This document shows, in pieces, positions 26,585-64,000 of a DNA stretch of 64,000 nt (position 1 is its first letter; the number at the start of each line of letters is the position of its first letter). The notes below the pieces were generated by a model. The model searched no databases. It saw nothing but the letters and a program-made list of their open reading frames with translations, and was not told where the DNA came from. The position numbers and the translations under genes were made by a program. The DNA comes from Isurus oxyrinchus (lineage: Eukaryota), in the NCBI GenBank assembly GCA_026770705.1, contig JANJGN010000007.1, positions 141,980,001-142,044,000 on the forward strand, given 5' to 3'.

Positions 26585-29500
26585 TGAGTCTGTGTGTGTG
26601 TGTGAGTGCGTCTGTGTTTGTGTGTGTGTGTGTTTGTGGGTCAGTGTGTGTGTGTAGGAGAGTGCGTCTGTCTGTGTGTGTAGGAGAGTGCGTCTGTCTG
26701 TCTGTGTCTGGGAGACTGCGTCTGTCTGTGTGTGGGAGAGTGGGTCTGTCTGTGTGGGAGAGTGCGTTTGTGTGTGTGTGTGTGGGAGAGTGCGTTTGTG
26801 TGTGTGTGTGTGGGAGACTGCGTCTGTGTGTGTGTGTGTGTGGGGGAGTGCGTCTGTGTGGGGGAGTGCGTCTGTGTGTGTGGGTGTGGGGGAGTGCGTG
26901 TGTGGGTGTGGGGGAGTGCATCTGTGTGTATGGGTGTGGGGGAGTGCGTCTGTGTGTGTGGGGGAGTGCGTCTGTGTGTGTGTGTTGGAGAGTGCATCTG
27001 TGTGTGTGTGTGTTGGAGAGTGCGTCTGTGTGGGTGTGGGGGAGTGCGTCTGTGTGGGTGTGGGGGAGTGCATCTGTGTGTGTGGGTGTGGGGGAGTGCG
27101 TCTGTGTGTGTGGGTGTGGGGGAGTGCGTCTGTGTGTGTGGGTGTGGGGGAGTGCGTCTGTGTGTGTGGGTGTGGGGGAGTGCGTCTGTGTGTGTGGGTG
27201 TGGGGGAGGGCGTCTGTGTGTGTGTGTGTTGGAGAGTGCATTTGTGTGTGTGTGTGTTGGAGAGTGCGTGTGTGTGNNNNNNNNNNNNNNNNNNNNNNNN
27301 NNNNNNNNNNNNNNNNNNNNNNNNNNNNNNNNNNNNNNNNNNNNNNNNNNNNNNNNNNNNNNNNNNNNNNNNNNNNNNNNNNNNNNNNNNNNNNNNNNNN
27401 NNNNNNNNNNNNNNNNNNNNNGTGAGTGCGTCTGTGTTTGTGTGTGTGTGTGTGTTTGTGGGTCAGTGTGTGTGTGTGTCTGGGAGACTGCGTCTGTCTG
27501 TGTGTTGGAGAGTGCGTCTGTCTGTGTGGGAGAGTGCGTTTGTGTGTGTGTCTGTGGGAGACTGCGTCTGTGTGTGTGTGTGGGGGGGGGAGTGCGTCTG
27601 TGTGGGGGAGTGCGTCTGTGTGTGGGTGTGGGGGAGTGCGTGTGTGGGTGTGGGGGAGTGCGTCTGTGTGTATGGGTGTGGGGGAGTGCGTCTGTGTGTG
27701 GGGGGAGTGCGTCTGTGTGTGTGTGTGTGTTGGAGAGTGCATCTGTGTGTGTGTGTGTTGGAGAGTGCGTCTGTGTGGGTGTGGGGGAGTGCGTCTGTGT
27801 GTGTGGGTGTGGGGGAGTGCGTCTGTGTGTGTGGGTGTGGGGGAGTGCGTCTGTGTGTGTGGGTGTGGGGGAGTGCGTCTGTGTGTGTGGGTGTGGGGGA
27901 GTGCGTCTGTGTGTGGGTGTGGGGGAGGGCGTCTGTGTGTGTGGGGGAGTGTGTCTGTGTGTGTGTTTGTGGGGGAATGCGTCTGTGTGTGTGTGTGTGT
28001 TGGAGAGTGCGTCTGTTTTTGTGTGTGTGTTGGAGAGTGCGTGTGTGTGTGTGTTGGAGAGTGCGTGTGTGTGTTGGAGAGTGCCTTCTGTGTGTGTGTG
28101 TTGGAGAGTGCCTTCTGTGTGTGTGTGTTGGAGAGTGCGTCTGTGTGTGTGTTGGAGAGTGCGTCTGTGTGTGTGTGTTGGAGAGTGCATCTGTGTGTGT
28201 GTGTGTGTGTTGGAGAGTGCGTCTGTGTGTGTGTGTGTGAAAGTGCGTCTGTGTATGTGTGTGAGTGCGTCTGTGTTTGTGTGTGTGGGAGAGTGCGTCT
28301 GTGTGTGTGTTTGTGGGACAGTGCATCTGTGTGTGTGTGTGTGTGTGTAGGCGGGAGAGTACGTCTGTGTGTGTGTGTGTGGGCGGGAGAATGCGTCTGT
28401 GTGTGTGGGAGAGTGCGCGACTGTGTGTGTGTGGGAGAGTGCCCGTCTGTGTGTGTGTGTGGGAGAGTGCGCATCTGTGTGTGTGTGGGAGAGTGCGCCT
28501 CTATGTGTGTGTGTGGGAGAGTGCGCGACTGTGTGTGGGAGAGTGCGCGACTGTGTGTGTGGGAGAGTGCCCGTCTGTGTGTGTGTGGGAGAGTGCGCGT
28601 CTGTGTGTGTGTGGGAGAGTGCGCGTCTGTGTGTGTGTGGGAGAGTGCGCGTCTGTGTGTGTGTGGGAGAGTGCGTCTGTGTGTGTGTGGGAGAGTGCGC
28701 GTCTGTGTGTGTGTGGGAGAGCAAGCATCTGTGAGTGCGTGCGGGAGCGAACGTGCAGGCAGGAGAGACTGTGTGTGTATGGGAGTGAGAGTGTCAATGT
28801 GTGAGAGGGAGTGAGAATCTGCATGTGAGGCTGACTGAGTGCATGGGACTGAGTGTGTGTGTGTTGGGGGGAAATCCATTTGTATCCGAAAATGGGCCTG
28901 CTCCTTCAGGAGTGAGCCAATCCTGACAGCGGCCTCCACCCTGGCATTTCTATGCTGTTGGCTACTGGAAGTGTTCAAGATGCAGCTGCCATCGCAGTAG
29001 GATGTGGCATGTGCCAACACCTCCTCTGGAGAGAGAAGCACATTCTGAAGTTAAATCCTTCACCCCAGCACTGAGGTGCAGCCAAGTAAGCCTGCATTCC
29101 CCCAGAAAGTGCAATGTATTCTGCTTTGCAATTAATGTCCTTTCTTCCTTTGTGTTATCACAAGCTGAAATGAATCAGGCAATGGCCTCTATTATAGTGG
29201 TCGATGTGGCTCTCACATTGCAGGGTTTTTGATAAAGTGGCCCTTTGCTTGAAAAATAGTGACAATCACTGATCCTTTTGTCCTTTGCTGCCTGTATTCT
29301 TTGCTGTTCTAAGAAACACCATCGATGCTTGAGATTGCTCCCCAGGTAGTCTTTCTTGTGCATTTTCTCCCAATCTGGTGAACATGCCGCATTTCTTGAG
29401 TTTCACCTTCAAGGTGACCTTGAACCTTAAGCTTGGCCTATCTGGCAGGCAGTGTCCAAGCTTAAGCTGTGAGTACAGGACCAGCTTAGGGATTTTATCG

Positions 29501-32500
29501 TCAGTCTCAGGCACAATAGGGCAAATGGCCTCCTCCTGTGCTGTATCATTCCCACTCTGATGGGAGGGTGGATCATTCTTTAACAGGTAGCTTTTTTTGC
29601 AAACCATTTTCAGATGCAGTACTTTATTTCTTGTTAGAGATTAAATAAGCTAGTAATGAGGTTCATAAATAGACTGTCAATCTATATTGGTTTATGTTCC
29701 CAAAGCAATAGCAACTCATGATTTTTATAGCAAATTTCTTGATTTTTAAAAGTTTGTCAATTGATTTATGAAATGATGGAGTTGACATGTCTGTTACCAG
29801 CAAGGATAGCTTAAGGGTTTGATCTTTCATTTTCCCTAGATAATCATTAGATCCAGCTGGTTTCTAAACTGTAAAGTTAATTTGTTTTTACAAAGTGAGC
29901 ATGTGCAAGCACCGATTCTAATTATCATTCCATAAGCATAAAGAAAAGTTCAGCTAAAAATTTTTGGTGAGATCAGATTTTTATTAAAAATCTTTACATT
30001 ACAGTGGTGAAATCCAAGTGTCCCTCCTATGTAGGGGTCACAGGAATTATTCTACAGGAAATGAAACACATCTTCAAGATTATCACTGAGGAAAATAAGC
30101 TTAAAGGTATTGTAAATTTTGGACCTGTCCCATAAGTGTATTCCACCCTTTACAATGAAAACTTTATAGTTCCTGTCCAATATCGAGTTGCACCATAGCT
30201 TGGATCATGGTAATAAAACCCTGGAATAAATGAACAGGATAAACTCTTGCATGTTTCCATTTTTATTTTACCTTCTACATACTTTTCTGGTATATTATCT
30301 CACTGATTCATCAACTTAGACTTGGTTTATTGAGGGATAAATATTAGCCAGGACTATGGAGATAATTCCTCTGCTCCTTCTTCAGAATAGTGTCATGGCA
30401 TCTTTTGCATTCATCTGCAGGGCTCCTGTTTAAAATCTATCTGAAAGACAGCACCTCCACCAGCATAGCGCACTCTCAGTACTTCACTGGGGCATTCACC
30501 CTGATTTTTAAGCTCAAGGCCTGTATTGGGACTTGAATCCAGAACCTTGTGGCTCAGAGGTGAGAGTGCGACCAACTGAGCCATGCATGGCTGATACAGT
30601 TTCTGACCAGTTATAAAGCTTAAAAGGCAAATACTTTTTGCTCTCCTCTACATTGGAGAGACCAAACGTAAACTGGGCGACCGCTTTGCAGAACACCTGC
30701 GGTCTGTCCGCAAGAATGACCCAAACCTCCCTGTCGCTTGCCATTTTAACACTCCACCCTGCTCTCTTGCCCACATGTCTGTCCTTGGCTTGCTGCATTG
30801 TTCCAGTGAAGCCCAACGCAAACTGGAGGAACAACACCTCATCTTCCGACTAGGCACTTTACAGCCTTCCGGACTGAATATTGAATTCAACAACTTTAGG
30901 TCGTGAGCTCCCTCCCCCATCCCCACCCACTTTCTGTTTCCCCCTTCCTTTTTTTTCCAGTAAATTATAAAGATTTTCCTTTTCCCACCTATTTCCATTA
31001 TATAAATAAAAAAAACACCCCTACTAGAGCTATACCTTGAGTGCCCTACCATCCATTCTTAATTAGCACATTCGTTTAGATAATATCACCAACTTTAACT
31101 TTAACACCTATGTGTTCTATTGTACTATTGTCGATGACATCTTTTGATGATCTGCTTCTATCACTGCTTGTTTGTCCATACAACCACACACCCCCCCCAC
31201 CTCTCTCTCTCTCTATCTCTCTGCCCCCCACACACACACCTTAAACCAGCTTATATTTCAACTCTTTCTTGGAATCGAACTCAAGTTCTGTCGAAGGGTC
31301 ATGAGGACTCGAAACGTCAACTCTTTTCTTCTCCGCCGATGCTGCCAGACCTGCTGAGTTTTTCCAGGTAATTCTGTTTTTGGTTTGGATTTCCAGCATC
31401 TGCAGTTTTTTTGTTTTTATAAATACTTTTTCTTGCTAAGTCTAGCTGTTTTACAAAGCTGACTGGCCTTGTGTTTCTTTATTCTTGTTTCCTAACTGAA
31501 TAAATAAACAAGTTTGATTTCTGACATTTCCTGTGTTGGGATTGGGCAATTAAACCAGCTACCAGTGGAGTATCCTAGCAACTATCGCTCAGTGTTTGCC
31601 AAATGAATAAGCCTATCTGAAGTAAAAGCAGGAACACTGGATGAACTCAGCAGGTCTGGCAGCATCTGTGGAGAAAGGAATAGGGGAGGCAGTGATACAG
31701 TGGTATTGTCACTGGACTAGTATTCCAGAGACCCAGGGTAATGCTCTGAGGACCTGAGTTCAAATCTCACCACGGCAGATGGTGAAATTTGAATTTAAAG
31801 AAAATCTGGACTTAAAAATTTGATGACCACAAAACTATTGCCGATTATCATAAAGACTAATGTGGTCCGTTAGGGAAGGAAATTTGCCGTCCCATGAACA
31901 AATAACCTCTCTTTAGTTCCAAAGAAGAGCTCTGCTGTATTCGAAACATTAACTCTTGTTTCTCTCTCCGCAGATGCTGCTAGACCTGCTGAGTTTTTCC
32001 AACACTTTGTTTCAACTTTAGATTTCCAGCATCTGTAGTATTTTGTTATTTAAATCTATCTGAGAGATGAGTTAACACTTATTGTTGCAGTTTGAAGCGG
32101 TATATAAGTAGAAACAGTCCATAAACTGGGTTGTCTAGTTTTAATACACATCCTTTCCAGCCCTCCCTCCAGCTGAAAGTGAATTTAGACCCTACTGAGT
32201 GAAAGTAAACTTTAAAGTATCATATTATTGAAAATCATACCACGGTCCTTCTGTAACAAAATAGAGCTCAAAACAAGACAGCTTGTTATCCCCATGTGGT
32301 CAATTTAATTCTGGTAGAGCTAGCTAAAGAATAGCTCAGCTAAAATAAAGTTTAGCTTAGCCTGTTATATACAGTTATTTGTATTTAGTGCAGTGTAAGC
32401 TCGGTGTGTGAAACTAAACCTATTTTGAACTTCAAGTTTTGTAGCCATAACTTCACTCAAAGGCAGTTAACTTGAAGCCATATGTGGATAATTGATGGAT

Positions 32501-35415: not shown

Positions 35416-35467
35416 ATGAATTGCTTTCCAGTGGAACTCGCTATACTTTATTTGGTTTCTTTGGCAG
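35416..35467 (+). CDS. Ig-NLR exon 1: signal peptide
   Basis: [17 protein letters not shown] then G|gtaagt (phase 1). Confidence 0.8.
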
Positions 35468-38400: not shown

Positions 38401-41400
38401 CCCCTCCCTGCCCAATCATAGGCCTCTTTCCCCCCCCACCCCCAATCACAAACCTCTCCTAACTCCTGATCATAGACTACTCCTCCCCCAAACTCCCTAC
38501 CCCACTTCATGCCTCTCCAGTTGGCTGGCTACAGGCTGGGAAACAAAAACAAAAGAAAGACTTGCATTTATGTAGCATTTTCACATCCATAGGCTATCTT
38601 AAACTGCTTCAGTGAAGTACTTTTTAAAGGGTAGCTGCTGTTATAATGTAGGAAACAGATTTTTTCAGAAGTGGCTGAGGTGCCCCACATCCCCCCCTCC
38701 CGACTACATTTTGCACGTCCTTGTCATAAAACTGTTGGCCATTTCTCCCCCATGGAATTTTGTTAAATCAAAAAATGATTCCAATTAGTAATTTATGAAC
38801 CATATTTCATGCCTATTTTATTTCAATATGTATTTTTCTTAATGCAGCATCCCTGGAGGTGGTGGTCATCCCGGCTGTCAATGCCACAATTGGTGAAGAT
38901 GTCCTGCTTGGCTGCTCATTTTTGCACACAGATGAGCTTGATTTGAGATACATTGTGATTGAATGGAACCACAGAGTGGGGAATGATGAAAAAGCAGTTT
39001 GCTTGTTCGACTTTGGAGAATTTGAAAGCTATAGACCAGAATCAAGTCTCTCTATAAATGAAATAAGCAAAGCAAATGCTTCTTTACTCCTAAAGAATGT
39101 TACAATTCATGACATTGGATCATACACCTGCATAGTTACAATATTTTCCGATAAAGCAATGGGGAGAGTTACTTTGGCAGTAACAGGTGAGTGAAGGATG
39201 ATACCTGACGTGTAATTCTTCAGGAAGTTTGACTGGAGTTTTTTTTTTAACTATGTTCACTAGAAATGTTAATGGTGTAAATAAGAATTCCAGCTGACTT
39301 CGGGAAGTGTAAAAATGTACTGATGAGATAGGTACAGAGATGTAAATATTGTCAATAATCGGACTCAGTTTGCTGTAAAATAGCAGATAACTTGCCATCA
39401 TCTAACTGAGCAAAAAAAAGTGTCTATGAATTTTGAGATCTATTCACAGACAGTTTTTAATGTACCCATCGATAAGAGGTGATAAGAGAAAAGCACTTCC
39501 AAAATCTGGTTGAATGAATTTTAACTTACCTCAGTGGTGAAGGTACATTTCTGCATACCAAAATATCCACCAAGGTGGACTGTGTGATATGAGAAGCTTT
39601 TGACAAGGTGCTACATCAAAGGTTACTACACAAAATCAGAGCTCATGGTGCCGGCGGTAACATGGTAGCATGGATAGAGGATCGGTTAGCTAACAGGAAA
39701 CAAGAGAGTCAAATGGGTCATTTTGCAAAATGTCAAAAGCGGAGTACCACAGGGATCAGTGCTGGGGCCTCAACTATTTGTAATTTATATCAATGACCTG
39801 GATGAAGGCACCAATGTATGGCTGCTACATTTGCTGATCACTCAAAGACATTTAGGAAAGTTAGTTGTGAAGAGGACATCAGAGCCTGCAAAGGGGCATA
39901 ATTAGGTTAAGTGAGTGGGCAAAGATTTGGCAGGTGGAGTATAATGTGGGAAAATGTGAACTTGTCAACTGTGACAGAAAGAATAGAAAAGCAGCATATT
40001 AAATGGAGAGAGACTGCAGAACTCTGAGGTATAAAGGGATCTGAGCATCCTAGTCTAAGAATCATAAAAAGTTAGTATGCAAGTACAGCAAGCGATTAGG
40101 AAGGCAAATGGAATGTTGTTGTTTATTGTAAGGGAAATAGAGTATTAAAATAGGCATGTTTTGCTACAATTGTAAACAGTGTTGGTGAAACCGCATCTGG
40201 AGTACAGTGTAGAGTTTTGGCCTCCTGATTTAAGGAAGGATATAAATGTGTTAGAAGCAGTTAGGAGAATGTTCAGACAACTGATACCTGGGATGGAAGG
40301 TGTTATGAGGAAATGTTGGACAGGCTGGGCCTATATCCGTTGGCGTTTAGAAGAATGAGAGGTGATATTATTGAAACGCGTAAGATCCTGAGGGGACTTG
40401 ACAGGGTGGATGCTGAAAGGATGCTTCCCTTTGTGGGAGAGACTAGAATTAGGGGACAGACTCTAATAAGGATTTTGTGGTAGCAGCAAATATAGAGCAT
40501 TCGCTTCAGATCTTGATAAAAGCTGTACGCAAAGATCTAGGGGTCTCTGTCGCACAGTTTTCCCCTTTCCCAAAGTTAGTTTGTTGCTGTCATTAAGTAA
40601 AGAAGTCTCAATGCATCCAACAGCAGTGCCATCAAGCAGGGTAAGCAGCCAATCATATTGAAGTATTCTCATAGACAACAAATCAGGTAGCAAAAACCAC
40701 TTCTAATTTTAAAATTTTTACAGGTAGAGAAATAAATGTTAGGGACATTCACATGGGTATGTGTGGGGGTACCAGACGGTGAGGGAATGGGGGTGAAGGG
40801 CAGCTAAACAGGCATAGTCAAAATTAGAGCCAGAACTTTCAGAAGTGAAATAAGGTAACACTTTTTCATGCAAATTGTGGTAGCAGTTTGGAACTCTCTT
40901 ATGCAAACAGTAATTGGTGCTAGATCAGTTGTAAATTTTAAACCTGAGATAGCCCAATTTTTGTTGGCCAAAGGTATTAAGGCATATGGAACAAAGGTGG
41001 GTATATGGAGTTAGGTCTCAGATCAACCATGATCTCATTGAATGGCAGAACAGACTCGAGGAGTTAAATTGTGCATGGCTAACATGATCATGTTGCATTT
41101 TAGAGTGACATCAATAAAGAAAACCAATAAAAGGAATATAATATTTATCCTTATTCCTTTTGTCTTTGTAGCACCTCCTACAGTTTCAGTAAACACTGCA
41201 AACATTGACATTGAACTTGGGGAAGATAAAGCAATCATATGTGAGATGAAAAATTTTTATCCAGAAGACCATTCTGTCTCTTGGTTCAAACGTGGTTCAA
41301 AAGACACTGAAAGCCAAGTTGACGTCACATCAAGAGCAGTTGCAGGATCACCGCAACAAAATCAAGATGGAACATTTAATCTGCTTTCATTCCTAATCAT

Positions 41401-44400
41401 CAAAGGCATCCAAACAGATGAGGGAGCTTGTTATGTCTGCTTAGTTAGTCATGAAGCTTTAAAAGCACCTTTACAAAATGTTGTCAGCTTGACCATCAAG
41501 GGTGAGTAACAGTAAAGGAGAATGGTATCTAATAAATAGTGAGAACCATTTCATTTTTTGATTCTATTATGGTATGAATTATATTTTATTTTCATTTAGG
41601 AAACCTTGGCTTGAGTTTATGAAATTGAGCCACACAAATAGATCATTACAAATAAAAGACATTATTTAGTTGCTACACATGTAAACATCTATTCCTTACA
41701 ATAAATCTTGCCATATTTTAATTGTCCAGTTTTACTTCATCATTCAGTTTGTTCTTTGCTCATTTGTTCTTTGAAAAATGATTTTTTTGTGAATGTTTTT
41801 CACAGCTCCCTGGGATAGCACAGTAGCAATAATGACAAACTTTCATATGAATTTATTAGAAATGTACAGGACAATAAAGTAGTATCAATATTATATCTGA
41901 ATTAAGTGGAATTTCTAAGTGGATTCTGTTGTTCCTAGGTCAAAATGTGCAAGGGAACAGTTTTGCTTACCATTAGAAACAAGAACTTTTTTAATAATTA
42001 TCCTTAGTGAGCATTCAACCAAATAATCTATTTTTTGATCATTCAGCTATCGGCAGATTCAAAAATCTAGTAACATATTTAAGAATCTCTGAATAAAACT
42101 ACTTGTAGATTTTCAATATGGAATGCACACACTCTCCCCTTTGGAGCACAACTCACTCTCCTGAGCCCAGCGAGCTTAGGTTGGCAGAGCCAGAGTTTTG
42201 TTACCGACAAGTGTACACAGAAGTGGCCCTGCAGTTAAAACACACTCACTGACTCCATTTAATTCTGCAAACCAATGGGAAATTTCCCAGCCGCCCCCCC
42301 CCCCCCCCCCCCCCCCAGTGATAAGTCTACCTCATCTAGGATCAAATAGGGAGCCAGGCTGGATGGGGAGTCATTAACATTTCCCTCGGTGCTTAGAATC
42401 CACTTTACTCAGATGCTAGCTTACACATCTGTCACAGAGAATTAAATTAGTTCTGAATTTCTATCGTCACTTGTATCATCTTGGAAGCACCTTGATCCCA
42501 AAGGGATCCAATTACTCCCTCCTCCACAAGTAGATTGTAACTATTTTGTCAATAGACGATTGACAAATACAGGTTATGCTAGGTGCCTAGCAGGTATCAA
42601 GTGTTCCTCAAAATGGTGGTGAGCATCAGAACTGACCATAAAATGTGTAAGTACATTGCCATCATCTTTCTGGCCACAGCATTGGCATACATTATATATC
42701 ATACTATTTCTGGTATAGCTTGAGAGCAACTGTTTGCCTCTCTGCAAACTAGTCATAGTAGGTACTGAGCCCTGGAAAAATGAGATTGTTGTTCCCAATT
42801 GACATCTTCCAACATTAGTCATCTCAAGTCTCAGTTTCCTCATAAGCTACATACATCTGCCTTCAACTTGGTGGAAGAACCAACTTAGGGCAGCTTGTAT
42901 CATGCTGTACATCTTAGTCTTAATTGTCCCAGGTCCCAATTGCTTTGTGTGTATTTGAGGGACTTTATCAAAGAAGTGTGGCAGCAATAGAGTGCCTTAC
43001 CCTCTAAGTTATTCAGTGAGAAATCAGTATAGGATGGAGCATTTTACTTCGAAGCCTCTTTTATCACGAATCCTTGTCATGGTTTGGTCCTGGATCTTTC
43101 ACACAAGCCATAGGAAGCCTTTCTGTTGCATGCCTAGGCGTATAAATATAAATATAAATGTAAGTTTTTAACAATGCTCCCAAAGCTGTTCTTTTACACT
43201 ATATTGTCATCTCATAGTGCTACTTGTCAACATATGACTTATATTTTAATCGCCTTTTCCTGCTTTCAATATCTGCAAAAGGAAGGTCTGGATGCAAACT
43301 AGCTCTTGATCCTTAGGCTAGAAAAGGAGAAGTATTATTTTCTAAACAATTATCAGGTGCAACATATCTTGGGTGCAGAGTGGGTCTGGGTGGGATACTG
43401 GATCAATAAATAATTATCTTCCTATTGACCTCATAATCTAAATGCCAATGCAGGACCAGAAATTGTAAATGAAATAGGAGTTACTGCTTTCAGTTATTCA
43501 CATGATGCTGCTTCATGCTGTACTGCAACTAAATTTAAAGTTGTTTTCTGTTACAAGCACAGTCTTGCTTTTAGCAACACAGAGGAACAGCAGTGAATAA
43601 TCAATAACACATCTTTGGTCTTGCATTTTTATAGGATCCAAGCCAAGAACAAGATCAGGAACATTGCTCACTTTTCTTATGACTTCTGTGATCACAGCAA
43701 CTGTTTGCTTTGCAACATTTATTTTTTACAGCAGTAAAAGAAAAGGTAAATAACTAAGCTTGTTTTTGGGATGTGGGTGACTTTGGCAAAGCTGCATTTA
43801 TTGCCTCTCTCTTGTTGCCCAGAAAAGGCGATGGTGGTCTGTGTCCTTGAGCCACGGAATTTTATGTGGTGGTGATGCTCTCTCAAGATGGAAAATTTCA
43901 GGATATCGACCGAATTCTGTAGAGGCTGTACTTTTTCAAAAGGGAGTCCCGCGGACCAGAAGGATCTGGTGCTGTCAGGTTCAAAATGGGAAGGTCTGAA
44001 AATTTGTTCGCATTGGGTGAAAAGTGTTTGTGCAGAGATGTGTATGTTACCTTCATTTTAGCTGCATGACCACTTTCCTTCAATTAAATGCTGCTAGTCC
44101 TCTAATGTGCTGTCTGCTTTTAGCGGCAAAGCAGTGGCTGCGGCCTGCCTTTTCTACAGGTGCCAAGCAGGCTGCTCCTATCTCCTGGAGACACTCGGCT
44201 TCCTGCCCAATTAAGACATTTGCATTTAAAAATGGCACGTGATAGCGAGATAGCTGAGATTCCGGGTCGAACCCGGAAATTATCCGAGCTTTGGGTTCTT
44301 GAGCCTGCTTTGAAACCCGGCTCTTAGTGCTTCAACCCATATGTCAGCATTTCAGGAGAGAAATCTGCTTTTGTCCAGTGGAATTGATGGTTGCCAACCG

Positions 44401-47400
44401 ATCACAGCAGTTGAAGGGTATTGCCTAGTTTCTATCCAAAGAAAATGGAATACAAAAATAAATTGAAAATGATGAGAAAAGCAGCAGTGCAGCATAGTAT
44501 GAGAATTACATTTTTTTTGTAGAAAAGAGCAACTTGGTGATTCTGCTCCCCTTTGTTTTTCAGTTGCTCCCAAAGTGACGGACATCATTAAACCAAACCA
44601 TCTCCATTTGGCTGATCCCCTCTCTCTGGCTTGTGCAGTTCTCTGGTTCAAACCAAAAGCTATCAACGTTTCTTGGTATAGAGAGGAGGAGGGCAAATTC
44701 CAAAGAGTTCTCATCAGTAAATGGAACAGCACTTCATCTTCCGTAAAACAACGTGGATACAGTGGAGTTGAAGATTATCAGAGTGAGCAGGAACAAGACA
44801 AAACACTGTACTTCACGGAAGGAGAGCATGACATTGCCATAACTTTGAAAAATCACAAAGGAAGTGGAGCATACAGTTTAATGTCTCAGCTCACCTTCAG
44901 AAATGCCAAAGCTACAAAAAGGAAGCTTGTGTATTCTTTTGAAGTTCAGCATGACTCTCTAAAGCACACTATTTCAAAAGTAGTTGTTTTAGAAATCAAA
45001 GGTGAGTTGCTGTTAACCCATTACGTAATAAAATTAGAAAGATATTAGCAGCAGATGAACTGAGGTAGGAGTTGAGTCAATAGATGTTATGTTAGTGGGG
45101 GTACAAGCCTATTTAAAATACTTGAGTTAATGACTTGGTTAAAATAATGGGTAGAGGTATGTCATACAAATGCCTTGTACAGTTCATACGCTAATGTCAC
45201 ACAGCAATATTTAAGATATTTCTGAATGCTTTAAATGCTGCTAACATATCCCTAGTAAAATGAGCAGAAAGTATATTCAGAATATCAAAATATTAACTAC
45301 ATTGCTAAGTTTGCAGTGTTGCTAGCCCTTCTGCTGCTGCCTTTACCAATATTAGCAATCTCATTGTCATGTCCTTTGTCCAAGTAGAAGTTTAGTTGTG
45401 GAAAAGGGGAGATAGTGTGAACAATTTATGCAGAACTACTGAGAAAGATCATGCACTTCAAGTTAGAAAGATTTGAGGATGGTAGATGAGTAGATGTGTG
45501 GCTAACTCATTAGGCTCCTGGAAGCAGATTCTGCCTTTATACATAAATGGAAGTGATTTAGGACTGTATTGCTTATAACGTTACAGAAAGATTCTTTTGC
45601 TAAACTGTTTTTAAAACCAATTTGATCTCAAAATTCCTAAAGCATAATGGTTCTTCCAGAAGCAGGATTTCCAATTGTCCTCAGATCATGGCTCTGTTAT
45701 AAACTGAAGAAAAAGCAAAGCTAAAGAGCGGGATTGGGAAAAGTTGGCTTACTGCAGGCGAGACATGAATCTAATTGCAGGATTAAAATCTGCTGCTGTT
45801 AAAAGGATAATAGCAACATTAGCTGATGCAAGAAATCTGGACAATAACAGTGGCAACCAGATTAAAGAAACCTGTGGTAAATTTCAGGGAACTTGGACCT
45901 CTATGTCTTGCTAATGGAGATATGGGGCAAGAAGGATGCTCTGTTTGGGGTTGGGCCCAGAGTCCTACCAAAATCGTGGTTTGCACTTTGTGCAGGCAGG
46001 TCCTGTGCCATTTCTTTAAACACCAGTGGGTGAGCTTTTCAGCCCCGCCAGCTGGCATATTTTAGGCCAGGTGGCACATAAAATAAGATGGGTGGCTAGC
46101 TCACCACCTTCATTCCCACCCCTGAGCTGTCCCCATATTATCAGGCAGCATACCCACCCTTAGGCCTATGGAAGCCCTTAATTGGCCAATTAGCCCTACT
46201 GACGCCCAAGCCTGTGGTCTCAGATCTATGGGGCTCTGTTCTAAAAATGCTCTGGTTGGATGACCATCACATTCACTTGGAGCCACTGAGGATCACCTTG
46301 GACAACCTGAGACAGATGGCAGGGATCATAGAAAAGTTCAATGGCATTCTTAATGCCAATATCCAAGAAAAATTTGACAGAATGCAGCACTACCTGGAGT
46401 GACCATAAGACATAGGAGCAGAAGTTAGGCCATTCGGCCCATCGAGTCTGCTCCCCCATAATCATGTCTGATAAGTTTCTCAACCCCTTTCACCCACCTT
46501 CTCCCCGTAACCTTTGATCCCCTTACCAATCAAGAACCTATCTATCTCGGTCTTAAATACACTCAATGACCTGGCCCCCACAGCCATCTGTGGCAATGAA
46601 TTCCATAGATTCACCTCTCTCTGGCTAAAGAAGTTTCTTCTCATCTCTGTTCTAAAAGGTCTTCCCTTTACTCTGAGGCTGTGCCCTTGGGTTCTAGTCT
46701 CTCCTACTAATGGAAACATCTTCCCCATGTCCACTCTATCCAGGCCTTTCAGTATTCTGTAAGTTTCAATCAGATCCCCCCTCATCCTTCTAAACTCCAT
46801 CGAGTATAGACCCAGAGTCCTCAAATATTTCTCATATGTTAAGCCTTTCATTCCTGGGATCTTTCTCGTGAACCTCCTCTGGACCCTCTCCAGAGCCAAA
46901 ACATCCTTCCTGAGATACGGGACCCAAAATTGCTCACAATATTCTAAATGAGTGAAGTGTTTTGTTAAGGCTGGTGGAAGTATACCCCTCGTTGGTCATC
47001 TTTTCCAGTGGTGTAGCCATTCTGTAAGCTTCTGTTACTTCCTCTTCCTCCAGCTCCCTTCTGCCCCATTATAAGACCATTTCCAGGAACACCCAAAGCA
47101 AATCACTTGATAAAGGTTCCATGACAGAAGGGTAGGAAGGAAACATTTCCTGCCTAAAGTGCTGAAAATCATTTTGTGCAATCATTTTTATGTTGTCCGA
47201 CTGAGAATAGATTTTTATAATTAATTTAATCAGCGTTGTTGTCTCAGACAGAAACTGTCACTCGGGTAATTCAGTTTGTTTTTCTACCGCTTTGCGCTAA
47301 ATGTAATCCTAGTATAAATGATGGAATTTTTGAGACAGCAGTTTTTGCCCTTATTATCCTATTATTTGCAAACATACAGCACTCTGTGAAAGGGATCATA

Positions 47401-50400
47401 TTCTGTCTGCAATCAATTCTGCTGGCATAGTGTATGTATTTTACAATGCCTTGCACCTAAAGTTCTGGTCCTCAACACCAGTACTGTACCATATTGCCCA
47501 AATATTCTAGGTGTTGTGGAAACTTTCTCTTTAACTTTACAAATAAGAATATATACCCTTTAAATGTTTACTTCTTGACTAAGGTGGTTCCAGGTTCGAT
47601 TCCTGCCCTCTGCAGGAATCTATAATAGGGTGGGTGTGGGCATACCGAAATTTACCTCAGCATCCATGTTGTCTGCAGAAACCCTTACTGAAAGTCAGCA
47701 TGAGTGAATGTCACAAAGGACAGGGTCAGTCTCAGCTGCTTTACTCTCAGCTCATGCATGAGGAATAGGGAGCAAGAGACACCCATTGCACCGCACTTGA
47801 GCAAGGAGCCAATGCTTTAAGAAAGGAGTGGAGAGAAACTTGGTAGAATAAAAGGGTAAAACATTATTTCTTTTCCTGCTACCAGTTATGGCCCTGAAAT
47901 TCCACAGGGTTCTCCCAATTTTCCTGCTATGGGGTTCTTAGAGAAATGGCAGAAGTTAATCATTTACACCATTTTTCCACGGGTTTCACCCTGCTTCCTC
48001 CTGGAGAACCCAGTAGAAATTCCAGACCTGTGAGTATGAAGTCCTAAGGTAACAGATGTGGGTATGACCAACTTTTGGCATACTCATTACATTACTCAGC
48101 ATTGGAGGCATTAGAGAACTTCACTCAAAAAGAACAGACATTGCTACTTCGACCTGCACTAAGATATAGCATTTTAACTTTTAGCATTAACTTATTCAGA
48201 AAAGGTGACTCTATTACCTGTTCACTAGAACAGAGACAAGCAGAAGTGGGTAAAATAAACAATAATACTACCCTTGCAGAAATATGGGGAAAAAGTTGTT
48301 CTGGAATGAGCATTATTTAATCTGTGATAAAGAGAAAATAGTTAGTGCTTCAGACCATGATATCAAGTTGCCAGACAAAACATTTGCAAAATTATATGAC
48401 AGTTGAATTAAGCCATTCATTTTTGTGCTTATGCCATCTTATTAGCTACAAAATTTCAAATCTTTTAGACAGCTTAGTTTGATTGAGGATAATGTTTGAT
48501 TTTAAATTATTTCATATCATTCTTAACAGGTGCTTGTGACAATACTGGATATTTTCCATCACAAATGAAGCGCACAGACTGGGCAATACATGCAATTGAA
48601 GAAGGTCGTCGGACTGTGGTTAATTACATCAGTCCTAACATACTTCCACTCTTAAATCTTTTAATGAATAAGAAAATAATCTCTGAAGATGACCATAATG
48701 TAATAAACGATAAACCAGACGTTGATAAAGGGCGAACTCTTCTCGACATGTTGAGCCACAGAGGTCAGCAGTCGTGTGCTGATTTTCTCACTGCGCTGAC
48801 AGACACTGAAGACGTTTATCCTGGCTTAAAGAAGTTTGTAACAACACTGCTGGAATCCTACATTGATAAAGATGACAGGCCAATTATTGATCTTCTCCAT
48901 GAAAACCTACCAACTGTTTTATTTGAGGGCACCAATGAAAAAATCCAAATAACCAATTTCCCTGAAGGTAAGTGTGATTCGTCAAAGATAATCTCTTGCA
49001 TGTAATGAGTAGGTATCTCCATGTTTAAGGTTCCAGTATCAGTTTGGACCTGTTGATTTGGAAGTTCTTTAATATTGATGGATGGAAATACAATTTAAAC
49101 TCCAATACGTATAAAACAGACTCTGTATTATTATGGATATGGATTTTTCTAATGCTTGATTTGAAATCTTCACACATAAAGGGGATGATTTTCATCCCCA
49201 TTTTTGAAAGCGGTAGCCGCAGCAGGAGACCTCCAACATCAGTCTTCAGCCACAGTTGCTTGCAAGTAATTTGTTGAACATCACTTCTCTTAAATTGATC
49301 CTTTCCTCATACTCCCCTTCTACTCCTCATCCAGTTAACCATCTGATCTAAGTCATCCATTGACCAATTACAAACTTCCACCCTGGTAATCATAATTGAC
49401 ATATGTGCCATCTAGTTTTATTGAGTCACGGTTACACTGAAGAACTCAATAGGCTTCATTGTCTTTGGTTTCTGGTCTTAGCTGGTTTAAGTTGCCTTCC
49501 TTAGGATTTTCTGGATTGGGTTAGATGAAAGCCATGACAACATAGTTGTGCGTGGTACATTGGAGAGAATGAGCTTCTTGAACAATGAACTCCTTTTGAT
49601 TCCATGCTTTCTTATGTTCCTGTACTCACAGTGCAACAGCTCACTTTTTATGCAGTGGAAAACTTGTATTAGTATATATGTCACATTGTGTTTAATTCAT
49701 GTAGTGTTCTTATTTTTACTGAGTAAAAATATACTTTAAAGAACAAGTTCTATGCCAGATTTGCAGGACGTACATTAAAAATGAATCCATAATTATATCC
49801 AAGATACTAGGTAGAGATTACATTTTTATTTTGGAACCATGGCTCTGTCAGAATCTTTCTAGGAATTTGAAAGAAATGGAATATTTCCTTTCTTTGAAAG
49901 CAAAGCTGTTTTAATGTGATATGATATGTGAAATGTGGTGCAAGCTGAAATTAATTGCATTGTTTTAAGTATAATTATTTTTAAGTCATCCATAACAATT
50001 CATATTTGCTACATTCAGAACGAGTCCAGAATTTGTGTCACTTTGCAGATGATCGCACAAATGCAGGTTGTGTCTTGAAGATATTATGGGACAATCAAGC
50101 TGTTAAATACTCCTGCTAACTGATTTTAAAAATATACTGTGTTTACTACTTAGTGGAATGGAATAGATTATAGTTTAAACAAGCTTGCTGGCACCTTCAT
50201 ATATTTCTACAAGAGACATTTTAATTCTTAAAATGAACTACATTTTATCAGATGGCTTGCATTCCTTTGCACACACAATGGGTGGGATTTTACGGTCCCA
50301 GTCGCAGGCCAGACATACCAGTGCCACCGAAGTCAATGAACTTTCGGCAGACTCACAGCAGCGGGGCCGGAAAATCCTGCCCAGTGAAAGCCAGGTTCGA

Positions 50401-53400
50401 ATTATTTGCCTTCCAGGTAAGCCTTCATTCTTGTAGGGCAAAGCCGTGTAGCAGATGTTGTCCCATTTCATTGGACACAAACGCCGATCTCCTGGGTTCA
50501 ACATAAATCAACCACATAGACCAAGAAAGATTAAATTTGTTTTCTGTGATTTGGATTGTACTTCTTTTCATTTTGTGTCTATTGTATTAATTTATCATAT
50601 GCGTAACATCCAAAATTTGGTGACACGGGGGTATGTGTCAATTCTGTTCTCCACTGAGGAGCCCTGTTCATTATGATAGAATATGGAGGCTCCACTGTGG
50701 CTCATTACTTTTCTCTTGTAATTACAGAAATCTCTGAAGCAGTGGCCACACATAAATACACATTACTAGCACAGATGGAGAGAATAAAGCCATACTTTGT
50801 ATTTGATAACTCCAGACCATTGCTGCAGGAACATTTCACCAGTCTAGTCATTCTCAATGTCCGAGAAAGGAATAAAACTGAACATGAACTCCTGCAACAC
50901 AGAGACTACACAGCGTGCGAGCGTATAGATTTAAAACAGCTTCTTTCACCATCTGCACCTGGGGAAAAGCCACCTCGAGTCACTCTAGTGCAAGGAGTGG
51001 CAGGTATAGGCAAAAGCGTTATGATGCAAAAGCTCACTCATAGTTGGGCCTGTGGAATGATTTATACTGGATTTTATATACTGCTTTATTTCAATTTTCG
51101 GGAGTTAAACACAATCAAGGAAAAAATTAGCCTGACCCAGCTTATTGTACATAGTTACCCTCATCTGAGAGCATTGTGCAATAAGATACTGGAATTTCCT
51201 AGCAGGATCCTATTTTTATTTGATGGATTGGATGAATTCAAATTGTCTCTTGAATTTAACAACCATTCAATTGTTGACCCATCCATTGCTCAACATATTA
51301 ATCATTTGCTTGTAAGTATCATAAAGGGAGACCTTGTTCATGAGGCAACTGTCCTTATTACGTCCCGCCCAACCACAATCGATTTAGATAACAAAACATA
51401 TTTTAATCGATGTGCTGAAATTTTAGGATTTTCTAAAAGGGAAATTGCTGCATACTTTTTGAAGTGCCTCAAGGATAAAAAAGTTGCTGACCATGTCTTT
51501 CGAACAGTGAAGAGCATTGATTCTTTGTTTGGACTTTGCTATGTTCCTGCATTTTGTGATATCCTGTGTTTCTACCTCCATAAATCCTTTCACTGTAAAG
51601 GCAGGTGGTCTCAGATCTCTTCCTTTCCCAGGACAATCACCGATTTGTTCCTCAGATTCACCAAGTGTTTACTGATCTGTAACAGTGATGAGGAAGATGA
51701 CCCTGAGTCCTTCTGCATAGAAGATGATGAAGACAAAAATGAAATAATTAAATTAGCAGAACTTGCATGGGATGGAATCGTCAATAAAACAATAATTTTC
51801 TCAGCAAAAGACATTGAAAGGAACATTGCCAAAAATCCCCAGGACAAAAAATCCTTCTGGAAAAAAATTCTCACCAAAGAGAGCTTGAAAATGATGCAAT
51901 CCCACATTTGGCAATTTTTCCATCTGACACACCAGGAGTTTTTTGCAGCACTTTATTGCATTTCTGCAAATGAACCTGGTGTGGATCATGTGCATAAAGC
52001 CTTCAGTTCAAAGAGTAATGTATTTGAGATTGTACTGAGGTTCACTGCTGGCCTAGTCTCTCATAGCAACAGAAAACTCGTGAAGCAGTTGCTGCCTCAA
52101 CACCAGGTTAAAGAAAGAGAAGTCTTTGATGCTATCAAAAATGTTGCTGCAGTTGAAGTTCCAAAAGAAGACACGCTAACTCCAGAAAATATTACAAAAT
52201 ATACAGTGCACAAAAGACAAAAACTAACAGCCTCGCATTGTCTCTATGAAGCGGCAAATGAAAATTTAACACAACTAGTTGCCTCCCAAACCAGTGATGT
52301 TGTAAATTTTTCTTACATTTCTTTGAATGTGACTGACTGCACTGCAATTGCAAACCTCCTTTCTTACCATACCACGATTGAAACATTGGAATTAGATGGA
52401 TGTAAAGCTGGAGCTTCTGGTTTCCAAAGACTGGAGTCTGTTTTCTCAAAAGTCAAGACATTGAGGTATTAAATTTTGTTTTTTAGATATGAATTAGAAG
52501 TAACAAAATGCTTTGGCATGTTAGTGATTCAGCCACTGTGTCTTTTAAAGATAATCCTACTAAACTTTTATTAATGTAAACATTGTTAATATTCTATGTC
52601 CCATCAACCAAATAGATGAGTCTTGCACCTTGCATTTAAATGATACTATAAATAATCTACACACATGCTAAAGTAAATATTAAGGTTGCTTTATGGCTTT
52701 CAAATTGAGTTGTTCTGCAATTGATCCATTTATATTGTGGCTAATATTTTCAAATCTTTACTTAAAATTCATATATTTTATATTGAACGTTTTTAAAATA
52801 GCAAAAACACAACATGAAAACATTAATATTTGCTCACATATATTCATTTAATTTGTGATTAAACATAGTATTAGAGGGAAATGGTCCAACACACTTGCTA
52901 ACAGGCTACATGAACACCTTTAGTTTAAAATGCTTAGACAGTTGCTGTAAATACTATGATCGTTTACTGAAAGTTGGGGTCTAGCCTAAGATATTTTCTC
53001 TGGCACAGTGGTGTTGGGCAAGATAGCACTGTCATCTCTGAGTCAGAAGGCTGTGGGTTAGATTTAAGCATATATTTCAGGATGACACTCTACTGCAGTA
53101 CTGACGGGTTGGTACACTGTTGGAGGTGCTATCTTTTGGATGGGCTGCTAAACTAAGGCCCTATCTGCCCCCTCAGGTGGATGTAGAAGATCCATCATAC
53201 TATTCGAAGAAGAGCAGGGGAGTTCTCTGTGGTGTCCCTGCCAATTATTATCCTTCAGCCAACATTACTAAAAAACAATTGTCTGATCGTTATCTCATTG
53301 TTGTTTGTAGGAGCTTGCTGTGTTCAAATTGGCTGTCACATTTTCTGCATTATAACAGTGACTACACTTGAAAAGTATTTCATTGGCCATAATGCATTTG

Positions 53401-56400
53401 GGACATCCTGAAGTCATGAAAGCCACTTTATAAATGCAAATCTTTTAATAAAATTTAAAGATAAATGCTAAGTAAACTCTCGCAAAATATTTAAGGCCTG
53501 AAATTCTTTGGGGTTCTACCAGTCTCTATATCTATATCTAGCAAGAGATCAGTGACATGCCTAGGAAAATGACAATAACTGTTTAGCTGTACCCCAATTT
53601 CAGCCCATTTGTTGTTAAAAACCTCATCCATGCCTATGTCACCTCTAGATTTGACCATTCCAATGTTCTCCTAGCTAGCTTTCCATCCTTCATCATTCAT
53701 TGAACTTCAACTCAACAAAACTCTGCTGCCTGTATCCTAACCTTACTCGCCCATCATATCTTTTCTCACTGACCTTCATTGGCTCCTGATCCCCCAGTAC
53801 CTCAAATTAATTTTCATCCCCTGTTTAAATCTCCCCATATTTTTACCCTTTCAAACTTCTCTAACTTGCCACAACTCTGCTTGAAAACTCTATTCTTCTA
53901 CCTTTAGCTTTTTGAGCATTTCCCCACCCCTTCACCCCATGATTGGCAAAGGTGCCTTTCAGCTCCTGTGTTTTGGAGTTCTGTTCTTACACCCCTTTGC
54001 CTGAGCAGCCCTTTTTCTCCTAAAAAATCTTGCTTCCATAGCTCAGCCTTTGGTCAGCCCTCTAATATCGCCTCTTTTTGCTCATCATCGAGTTTTCCCT
54101 TATGCCTTCATTAAGTGCTTTTGAATATTCTTCTATATTAAAGCTGCTATATAAATACAAGTTGTTGTTGCTAGGTGTGAGTAAGAGACAAGAAGAAAAA
54201 AATTCTGTTTAATAAGTGAGAACATGCTAGCACTGCTTAAATTGAATGATTGTAGCTCAGTAAGTGAATATTTAACTACTTTAAAAATACATTCTGCATT
54301 CACAAAGGTAGAGCTAACAAAAAGATGATGTTTTAACTTACAGTTTAGAAGGAAACATGCTGGAGGATGAAGGAGCAGAGATCATTGCGAATGCACTCAA
54401 AAGTGAAACATGTAGAATAGAAACCTTAAGGTAAAATTCCTATGTCTGTTTCACTTTTGTACATTACATCATTAAAATGGCACAATAGTAAAATTAAAAA
54501 TGAACTACAAGTTTCAGTTAAGTACAAAAATATAGACAAAAGATTGAAAATTGATTGGAAAAAAATATTTGTTGGGAGTTAAGATTCACAGCCCAAGAGT
54601 GACAAAGTTCATTATGAGCCCTTTCCTTCAGCAGTTATCTCATAACGATATGATCAGAGATTCATAACTTAAATGGCGGCTCGAAGGGCTGAATAACCTA
54701 CTCCTGCTCCTATTTTCTATGTTTCCCGATTCTAGTGACAAGCAGTGTTATACATACAACAAACTATGAAATAAACTTTAACACATAAAAATAACTGCTT
54801 TCTATTTGGTCTATATTGTAAGAACTTGCATTTCATTTTTCTACGGCAGTAAATAATTCCCCACATGCCATCCAATGCTGATAACTAGACTAATCAGGAA
54901 TACTTCCAAACCAATTATCATTAAATCAGATGCTATAATTGAGATGATGGAATATTGTGTTTGCACATAATATTTGGATATTGCTAACTTCAAGTCCAGA
55001 CATATGGTACAAATGATACAGTGACTCAATGCCTGGATTCTTCCCAGGTTGAAACACAATTCCATAGGAGAGAGAGGAGCAGCCCAAATAGCTGAAGCAT
55101 TGAAAACAAACAGCAGTCTGAAAACATTGGGGTATGTATTGAACCTGGCAAATTAGAATACTTGTCAAACTTTCCAGAAAAAAATGATTTTGCTGCATGC
55201 CTGTCATGATGCATTTAGTTCTCTTACTTTTAACTAAATCCTTGTTTTCACTAGATTAAGAGCAAACACTGTCCGTGCCAAAGGTGCCCATTCAATAGCT
55301 AAAGCTCTGGAGATCAACACAACATTGCAAGTTTTCGGGTAAGTTTTTTTTTCTATGTAAATTGTTTTTTTTTATGTGCAGTACTTTGCTACTTACTGAA
55401 CTTCAGGGTTGCACTATTTGCTTTGAAATCTCCATAATGGCTTTTTATATTGACCAGCAGGAACTCTATATTTGTTAAAGTGTTAACATTTAAATTTGTG
55501 AATTTTGTTATTTGGGTTTTACGAAAACTAAGATAAAAGCAATAAACTTATGTCACCTAGCTGTAACGTTATACACAATTACATTATCAAGTAATTAATG
55601 AAAGAATTGTCCCTCACATTTCTTGATAAAAATATGGTCTGAACCCCCTTGGGAGATGTGCTGTGTCACCACCATTTCTTCAATACCTTGTAAGGCACAT
55701 AATTTCCTGCAAAGCAAATGACAACCACTGATGGAACAATTGGCAGACTTCCTATAAGCTAGGAGTTCCCACTATACAACTCCAGTGTGACCCAGTGTAT
55801 TGATGACAGCTGGTATGCAGAGGCATACTGGCCTCCATAAAGGTGATTATGGACCAGATTGGCCTCCTTGTCCTTAAGACTATTGCCAGAGGTGCTGGGA
55901 AGTGGCATTGGGCAACCCTCTTTCCCAAAGGGCAAATCAGCACCAGAGTTCCTGCCAGACATGGAGAGACTGTTGCTGAAACAGCCTTACGCCTGACCAA
56001 TGGAAATAAGATTCCTTTTGGTTCACCCTGCAAACTAGTGAAATAGGTGCCACTCGAGGAATTTTGGAGCCAATAAACTCCTCCACCCACCAAGGTAGTC
56101 AGGCAAAATCCAAGCTTACAACCTGTATAATTAGGTTTTGGTTGATTTGCATACCTGGCAATTTTATGGGTCCAACAACTCATGACTCTGTATGGGATAT
56201 GTATTCCAAGAGTTGACATTCTCATTTTGTTTTGGTTCAAAGTTTGCTTAGATTTTTTTTTTACAATTTATGTCAAAAAACATGCTAATCCTAAAGTGCT
56301 AAAATTGAAAATTTGGTATGATTTCAATGTAATAGAAAGTTATGTTTAAGTTTGATTATTTTATCAGCTTTTTGGAACTGTGCCTTTTGTGAGAAATTTA

Positions 56401-63957: not shown

Positions 63958-64000
63958 TAAACACCCCTGCAAACTTCACTCTCCCTACCACAGCAGCTGC

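Follow-up and report, generated by a model that had tools for sequence, protein, structure and literature searches.

Exon 4 of a gene in Isurus oxyrinchus (43635..43745; 111 nt, phase 1/1), which encodes a predicted transmembrane (TM) helix, is spliced into a single transcript, which begins with a signal peptide and two Ig domains of B7 type and continues through CARD and NACHT to LRRs. The gene, located in the window (the whole 64,000-nt stretch of DNA analysed), comprises 13 exons for a signal peptide, IgV, IgC1, TM helix, Cys-deficient IgC1, CARD, NACHT, and LRRs. Judged by its predicted domains and their distribution, it is a conserved, single-copy transmembrane NLR of elasmobranchs.

Organization of the gene

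Exons 1–12, all on the + strand, lie inside the window and provide 1289 codons with no stop; exon 13, the last, was located by tblastn about 1.1 kb beyond the window end. The start codon and a predicted signal peptide (17 codons) are in exon 1 (35416..35467), which ends in a phase 1 donor and is supported by its joint to the V exon in 4/4 runs, by hydropathy, and by identity with the N-terminus of protein P0001. Exon 2 (38848..39186) encodes a B7-type IgV domain with three N-glycosylation sequons (Pfam V-set, 1.5e-8; PDB matches to CD276, VTCN1, NCR3LG1, and PD-L1). Exon 3 (41172..41501) encodes an IgC1 domain with both canonical cysteines (Pfam C1-set, 1.2e-12, above cut-off; human B7-H6 match, 1.5e-14). 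A basic stalk, the predicted helix, and a basic, presumably cytosolic flank make up exon 4. The following IgC1-like domain of exon 5 (44564..45001; Pfam C1-set, 3.4e-6), which would be cytosolic, is without the F-strand cysteine and includes a long disordered insert.

CARD and a linker are encoded by exon 6 (48530..48967; Pfam CARD, 2e-9, above cut-off), supported also by contig continuity. Exon 7 (50728..52465), delimited by joints, contains NACHT (Pfam, 2e-33), the winged helix, HD2 (Pfam, 2e-11), and the first LRR. Further LRRs follow in exons 8–10 (54344-54430, 55048-55131, and 55255-55338), with joints in 4/4 runs, and in exons 11 and 12 (57401-57484 and 59039-59122), which lie beyond the reach of the read alignment and are supported by the open frame and by 100% identity to P0001. 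The LRRs are also recognized by PF13516 matches on orthologues. All introns as far as NACHT are in phase 1. The span from V to NACHT is covered by single contigs of 5526 nt and 3813 nt, and a 4417-nt contig from the window's own organism holds C1, exon 4, and exon 5, with letters of V and CARD on either side. Compared with the white shark RefSeq model XP_041047653, the predicted protein has 19 differences in 1289 positions, none of them in exon 4.

The gene is single-copy in the Isurus oxyrinchus genome and is situated on contig C7 between POP4 and a PLEKHF1-like gene. The POP4 exon (RNase P/MRP p29) at 29995-30111 is the sole match in the genome, and the gene begins about 5 kb further on. The PLEKHF1-like frame is located 39 kb beyond the window and was named from its motif content and from the label of protein P0012. 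A segment within the last intron of the gene (61380-64000) is intronless and frame-broken, with a Tudor-knot/chromo-barrel match and 46–73 stops per frame. It is likely a processed pseudogene, which we take to be of the ARID4 type. In addition, a strand-skewed, TG-rich simple repeat of about 9 kb with eight N runs occupies positions 19750-29050.

Splicing of exon 4

Exon 4 was proposed by the sequence-only reading, and its coordinates, length of 111 nt, AG/GT ends, phase 1, and translation all proved exact. The exon is bordered by a pyrimidine tract with an AG acceptor and by a GTAAAT donor, in symmetric phase 1. Its splice sites had been described as strong, and in the segment 39200-50700 the acceptor ranks 7th among 810 AG and the donor 4th among 627 GT, as scored with a home-made splice matrix. 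Scanning of open, symmetric phase-1 AG..GT segments gave 456 candidates, 21 of which have a 19-residue Kyte-Doolittle mean of at least 1.6. Nineteen of these 21 are intronic chance segments, so hydrophobicity alone is no proof of the exon. On the summed Hessa scale, no segment of the gene model is more favourable for the membrane than the helix (−1.3 for 21 residues), and the signal peptide ranks next (+2.2), in line with the TM segment predicted earlier.

Seven runs (X1, X2, X3, X5, X6, X7, and X8, of 23 listed) were aligned, representing 5 samples, 4 studies, and 2 organisms. The joint 41501/43635, which connects the C1 exon to exon 4, was detected in 7/7 distinct runs; in X1 its shorter side comprises just 28 letters. 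The joint 43745/44564, from exon 4 to exon 5, was detected in 6/7; in the seventh run the contig (depth 3.9) stops inside exon 4. Inclusion in transcripts, which the sequence-only reading had named as a check of the exon, is thereby confirmed. Introns flanking exon 4 are without read cover. In runs X2, X3, X7, and X8 these two joints are the only ones in the region, with the introns uncovered, and the complete joint lists of the four runs contain none that skips exon 4, bearing in mind that contig assemblies lose rare variants. The runs are not on record as RNA, and their RNA status, guessed by a tool, is deduced from the GT..AG joints and the uncovered introns. Exon 4 is real and spliced, and it is constitutive as far as contigs can show.

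One 142-nt contig (41473-41614; run X1, depth 5.8) continues across the donor of C1 and meets an intronic stop two codons later. Retention of this intron would yield a secreted V-C1 form; the contig may also be pre-mRNA.

Conservation of the gene and the helix

Conservation in related species had likewise been proposed as a check, and exon 4 is present in 33/34 elasmobranch proteins (four more by eye). The sole exception, Mustelus isoform X5 (P0015, NCBI), also misses C1, and no model among the 34 lacks exon 4 alone. Full-length fusions form 14 clusters, all from elasmobranchs, both sharks and rays. The search was based on shared words within a length band, which supports absence outside elasmobranchs only weakly; no holocephalan or bony-vertebrate fusion was found by it or by HMMER, as weak evidence of absence. 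For shorter, unfused relatives, shared words gave only 2 matches and did not reach mammalian B7-H6.

Some isoform models deviate from the full architecture. Pristiophorus X2 and Narcine X4 are without the CARD exon, and other NCBI/UniRef models keep the helix and miss the signal peptide or the V domain (models noted: P0008, P0034, P0023, P0024, P0020, P0022, and P0028). With balanced flank charges, forms devoid of signal peptide or V could insert either way.

Among orthologues, identity is 76–77% in V and C1, 72% in CARD, 84% in NACHT, and 86% in LRR. The hydrophobic core of the helix (Leu251-Tyr272; 43664..43729) has a mean identity of 65% over 16 orthologues, which are kin and not independent sequences. 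A helical wheel places Thr253, Thr257, Thr261, Cys265, and Thr268 as a stripe on one face, spanning 120 degrees (angles 0–120). No substitution occurs at Thr257, Thr261, Cys265, or Thr268, and 15/16 orthologues retain Thr253, so the Thr-rich, Cys-containing character ascribed to the helix by the sequence-only reading is real and conserved, with 4.9 Thr + Ser per 21 residues. All 4 invariant columns are polar, among seven polar columns in the helix (post hoc chance 0.005). Conservation shows no significant periodicity along the helix, as 1637 of 20000 shuffles reach the observed value. Outside the core, Arg/Lys247-Ser248 of the stalk, just before the helix, is kept in 16/16, and several orthologues have a second Cys near the cytosolic helix end.

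At the nucleotide level, exon 4 has 0 differences between the two organisms, versus 34 in 3283 bases of the other exons. A specially low divergence of exon 4 was rejected, since 0 differences are expected by chance with a probability of 0.32.

Orientation in the membrane

The protein very probably adopts a type I topology, for which the signal peptide, rather than the charge of the flanks, would be responsible. The C1 cysteine pair is present in 15/16 orthologues before the helix and in 0/16 after it, where the F-strand Cys position of exon 5 is occupied by Phe in 16/16. Such a loss is what a reducing compartment would leave. Sequon density per 100 residues is 1.24 before versus 0.57 after the helix. 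The signal peptide, together with the disulfide pair kept before the helix and lost after it, supports a placement of V and C1 outside and the NLR module inside, as the sequence-only reading had it.

The argument from which that reading derived the orientation, the positive-inside rule applied to SSKRK after the helix, fails. Net charge over 12 residues averages +3.3 before and +2.8 after the helix in the 16 orthologues, the C-side value exceeding the N-side one in 3, matching it in 6, and falling below it in 7; for windows of 6–20 residues, the C side is higher in 1 to 10 of 16. Both flanks being equally basic, orientation would be determined by the signal peptide, and the helix would act as stop-transfer. 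The NLR module had also been placed downstream of the helix, in the cytosol. Its cytosolic location is upheld, but the helix is followed first by an IgC1-like domain, which the fusion has inherited from its parent family, and about 150 residues of this domain with its disordered insert separate helix and CARD. AlphaFold2 predicts an Ig beta-sandwich with the disordered insert for exon 5 (pLDDT 68), and the model has Ig-fold matches which include B7-H6 (E ~1e-3). The model of a whole 1185-aa orthologue was uninformative (mean pLDDT 38.7).

The NLR half

The NLR half has a NACHT domain with intact Walker A and B, sensor 1, winged helix, and HD2, along with C-terminal LRRs and a death-fold domain (CARD) ahead of NACHT. 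In 16/16 orthologues, Walker A and the winged-helix motif show no variation, and Walker B and sensor 1 hardly any. NOD1, NOD2, and NLRC3/4 share with the fusion the order CARD-NACHT-winged helix-HD2-LRR, intact motifs, and one-repeat LRR exons. Canonical vertebrate NLRs are soluble, without signal peptide or TM helix, a trait absent here, as the helix is found in 33/34 proteins and in all covering contigs. Vertebrate CARD-NLRs are soluble and cytosolic in the available part of PMC8455134, in contrast to the transmembrane fusion.

In a quick tree of 28 of the 96 genomic NACHT matches (rows unnamed), the NACHT exon forms a long branch, and no sister to it is supported. It is at most 36% identical to the 27 other aligned genomic NACHTs and falls outside a three-gene cluster presumed to be NOD1; its best PDB match is NLRP3. 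CARD matches ICEBERG (5e-7) and the NOD1 CARD (3e-3), scores that are insufficient to identify a partner. The orthologues are labelled NLRC3-like or NOD1-like by NCBI, and by these comparisons the labels do not appear to be supported as statements of orthology. Most of the 96 NACHT matches fall in a single expanded clade, located on C35 and on small contigs, and many contain stops.

Relation to B7H6 and origin of the fusion

The outer half has the traits of the B7 family: a membrane-distal IgV and a membrane-proximal IgC (Pfam and PDB matches), a signal peptide, and one TM helix in the deduced topology. The membrane-proximal domain of exon 3 is of C1 type, which we take to be a feature of B7H6/NCR3LG1, and human B7-H6 is a top match for both IgV and IgC1. 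Human B7-H6 is, in the available part of PMC6514059, type I with an IgV + IgC ectodomain, as is the fusion, which unlike it carries C1-CARD-NACHT-LRR inside. The nurse shark orthologue of the fusion gene, helix included, has been deposited as B7H6 (QTT61908.1, 1318 aa).

An HMMER search with the domain following the helix resulted in 73 representatives, one fusion protein and 72 others. The order C1-TM-C1 was established by hydropathy and profile scan in 42 of the 72, and with one from another search they make up a set of 43; the remaining 30 were left out as fragments, as sequences with no helix at threshold, or as unrelated Ig chains. No NACHT, CARD, or LRR was found in any of the 72 unfused relatives. 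Named members of this V-C1-TM-(C1)n family come from frogs, newt, lungfish, coelacanth, bichirs, shark, and ray, one named NCR3LG1-like and the rest uncharacterized. They share with the fusion the domain order, a separate phase-1 TM exon, and the starting point of the first C1 after the helix. The Cys pair follows the same trend as in the fusion, being present in 40/43 before and in 12/43 after the helix. In contrast to the fusion, the family obeys the positive-inside rule (38/43), with an N-flank net charge of −0.3 versus +3.3. Its helices are Thr-poor (2.0 versus 4.9 Thr + Ser per 21 residues) and more hydrophobic (2.71 versus 2.27). On this comparison, exon 4 is ancestral, derived from the widespread B7H6-like V-C1-TM-(C1)n family, and the basic stalk and the Thr/Cys stripe are special to the fusion. 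By itself, exon 4 is an ordinary inherited part, already included in RefSeq models of relatives.

On contig C10, at 39.6–40.3 Mb (L008-L013 and L020-L025), V-C1-TM-(C1)n genes form a cluster; their C1 arrays would be cytosolic. In the paralogue examined there, a separate TM exon of 117 nt, also in phase 1, lies between the same pair of C1 exons. Beyond the cluster come an exon of a PI3K gene (40.63 Mb) and, flanked by introns, one of RPS13 (40.755 Mb), an order presumably matching the human NCR3LG1 neighbourhood, in which we take PIK3C2A to be followed by RPS13. Human synteny, as we assume it, also includes a Kir channel gene; none was found near the C10 cluster (nearest, 54.2 Mb), and that part of the synteny is not preserved. 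Human NCR3LG1 maps to 11p15.1 (PMC6514059, available part). The C10 cluster is probably the positional B7H6 locus.

The fusion gene is not beside PIK3C2A/RPS13, the neighbours of human B7H6, and its position on C7 between POP4 and PLEKHF1, with the B7H6-syntenic cluster on C10, suggests a paralogue of B7H6 and not its positional orthologue. Weak agreement comes from a quick tree of 20 ectodomains without mammalian sequence, which separates the fusion clade (99) and groups C10-type genes with coelacanth, lungfish, and bichir (81). We infer that, before the shark-ray split, phase-1 exon shuffling brought the first five exons of a paralogue resembling B7H6 together with a CARD-NACHT-LRR gene.

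In the ESM Atlas, C1-set domains occur together with a death effector domain in two clusters (1137 and 1331 aa; scores 0.77–0.79, a lead only, as is the best score of 0.82). Acquisition of a death-fold tail may have occurred repeatedly in the parent family; no death-fold domain was detected at E 0.005 in 8 long V-C1-TM-(C1)n members.

Similar receptors and previous reports

An analogue is AjNLRC4 of the sea cucumber, with extracellular Ig, TM, and intracellular NACHT (available part of PMC13133943). Membrane-bound NLRs have also been proposed in anthozoans (available part of PMC3879445). Both belong to other lineages, and in the accessible text no B7-type V-C1 pair, CARD, or cytosolic C1 is described for them. 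Judged from these descriptions, the likeness to the fusion is most likely convergent.

No description of a shark B7-NLR fusion was found in the literature searched, a set that excludes key shark immunology papers. In its available part, the whale shark NLR paper (PMC8455134) treats NLRs as intracellular and describes no Ig-bearing NLR, and its supplementary NLR list may include the gene. The accessible portions of PMC12227049, which presents nurse shark NCR3 proteins MT914154-61, and of PMC10751288 and PMC11599192 contain nothing on the fusion. Depositors of QTT61908.1, who had its sequence, possibly already noted it.

Possible function

The gene product is likely a surface receptor, which would pass a cell-contact signal directly to the inflammatory machinery inside. 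The signal peptide would target the protein, the exon 4 helix would serve as stop-transfer, and the NLR module would remain in the cytosol. An Ig-family receptor on another cell would bind the V domain and cluster the protein, the invariant Thr/Cys face would pack helix on helix, and NACHT oligomerisation would present CARDs to a CARD adaptor, with RIPK2, ASC, or a caspase as candidates. We consider the chances of this outside-in receptor to be evenly balanced. Contigs extending from V to NACHT, the 14 elasmobranch clusters, the cysteine asymmetry, the polar invariant helix columns, and intact ATPase motifs argue for it. Isoforms with missing parts (Mustelus X5 and the models without signal peptide or CARD) count against it, as do the flank charges, which give no orientation, the non-significant periodicity in sequences that are kin, and the conservation of the LRRs, which fits cytosolic sensing or autoinhibition just as well. 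The Ig-like spacer of about 150 residues would make the mechanical coupling of helix and CARD looser.

The same spacer would suit a membrane tether, in which ectodomain and helix park a conventional NLR at the plasma or endosomal membrane and the LRRs sense a cytosolic ligand; we regard this as possible, if doubtful. NOD1 and NOD2 are known cases in which membrane targeting plays a role. NACHT and LRR are the most conserved parts of the protein, and the conserved Cys, to which several orthologues add the second one near the cytosolic end, could be a palmitoylation site. However, identity of V and C1 is as high as that of CARD and exceeds what a bare anchor needs, and invariant polar helix residues are unnecessary for anchoring.

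Proteolytic release or guarding, where cleavage of the basic stalk or removal of the ectodomain would be followed by an intramembrane cut in the beta-branched helix that frees soluble, then active C1-CARD-NACHT-LRR, is unlikely. The Arg/Lys247-Ser248 pair and the basic N-flank special to the fusion point to it, but basic stalks can simply bind lipid or glycan, and the stalk is without the P4 arginine that the furin site consensus includes. Human B7-H6, according to the available part of PMC6514059, is shed by metalloproteases and degraded by herpesvirus proteins, which is in favour of release or guarding. It is quite improbable that the weakly hydrophobic helix retains the protein in the ER/Golgi, or that CARD is a decoy which damps NLR/caspase-1 pathways. 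The helix is indeed less hydrophobic than in the parent family, the best CARD match is the caspase-1 inhibitor ICEBERG, and a tapasin-related protein is a weak match of the V domain; yet B7 members outscore the latter, the CARD matches are too weak to point to a partner, and the ATPase motifs are intact. An artefact, either two adjacent genes merged through annotation or read-through or a pseudo-exon that is hydrophobic by chance, is barely credible: the 19 hydrophobic open intronic segments and the guessed RNA status speak for it, but, short of full-length cDNA reads, it is refuted by GT..AG joints and uncovered introns in 7 runs of 4 studies, by contigs that cross the fusion, by the frame without a stop in 1289 codons, and by the same architecture in sharks and rays.

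The outside-in receptor can be taken further. A B7-type lymphocyte ligand would be hard-wired to its own inflammasome/NODosome core, and the touch of an NK- or T-cell receptor, or attempted stripping by a pathogen, would directly fire CARD signalling through the Thr/Cys helix interface. We offer this extended version tentatively, as conceivable and rather unlikely.

Significance

In the textbook view, the NLRs of vertebrates are soluble sensors in the cytosol, and B7 proteins are short-tailed ligands on the cell surface. The gene described here, which is conserved, single-copy, and expressed, is an NLR and a B7 protein at once, and exon 4 is what turns the join into a receptor rather than a misrouted protein. 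Our results suggest that the nurse shark “B7H6” in GenBank is a paralogue, and that the genes at the B7H6 position form a neglected family with arrays of cytosolic C1 domains. If the outside-in receptor is true, the gene would be a vertebrate NLR that works from the outside in, with B7 co-signalling and innate NLR signalling combined in one chain. The fusion offers a natural test of whether clustering from outside suffices to activate an NLR.
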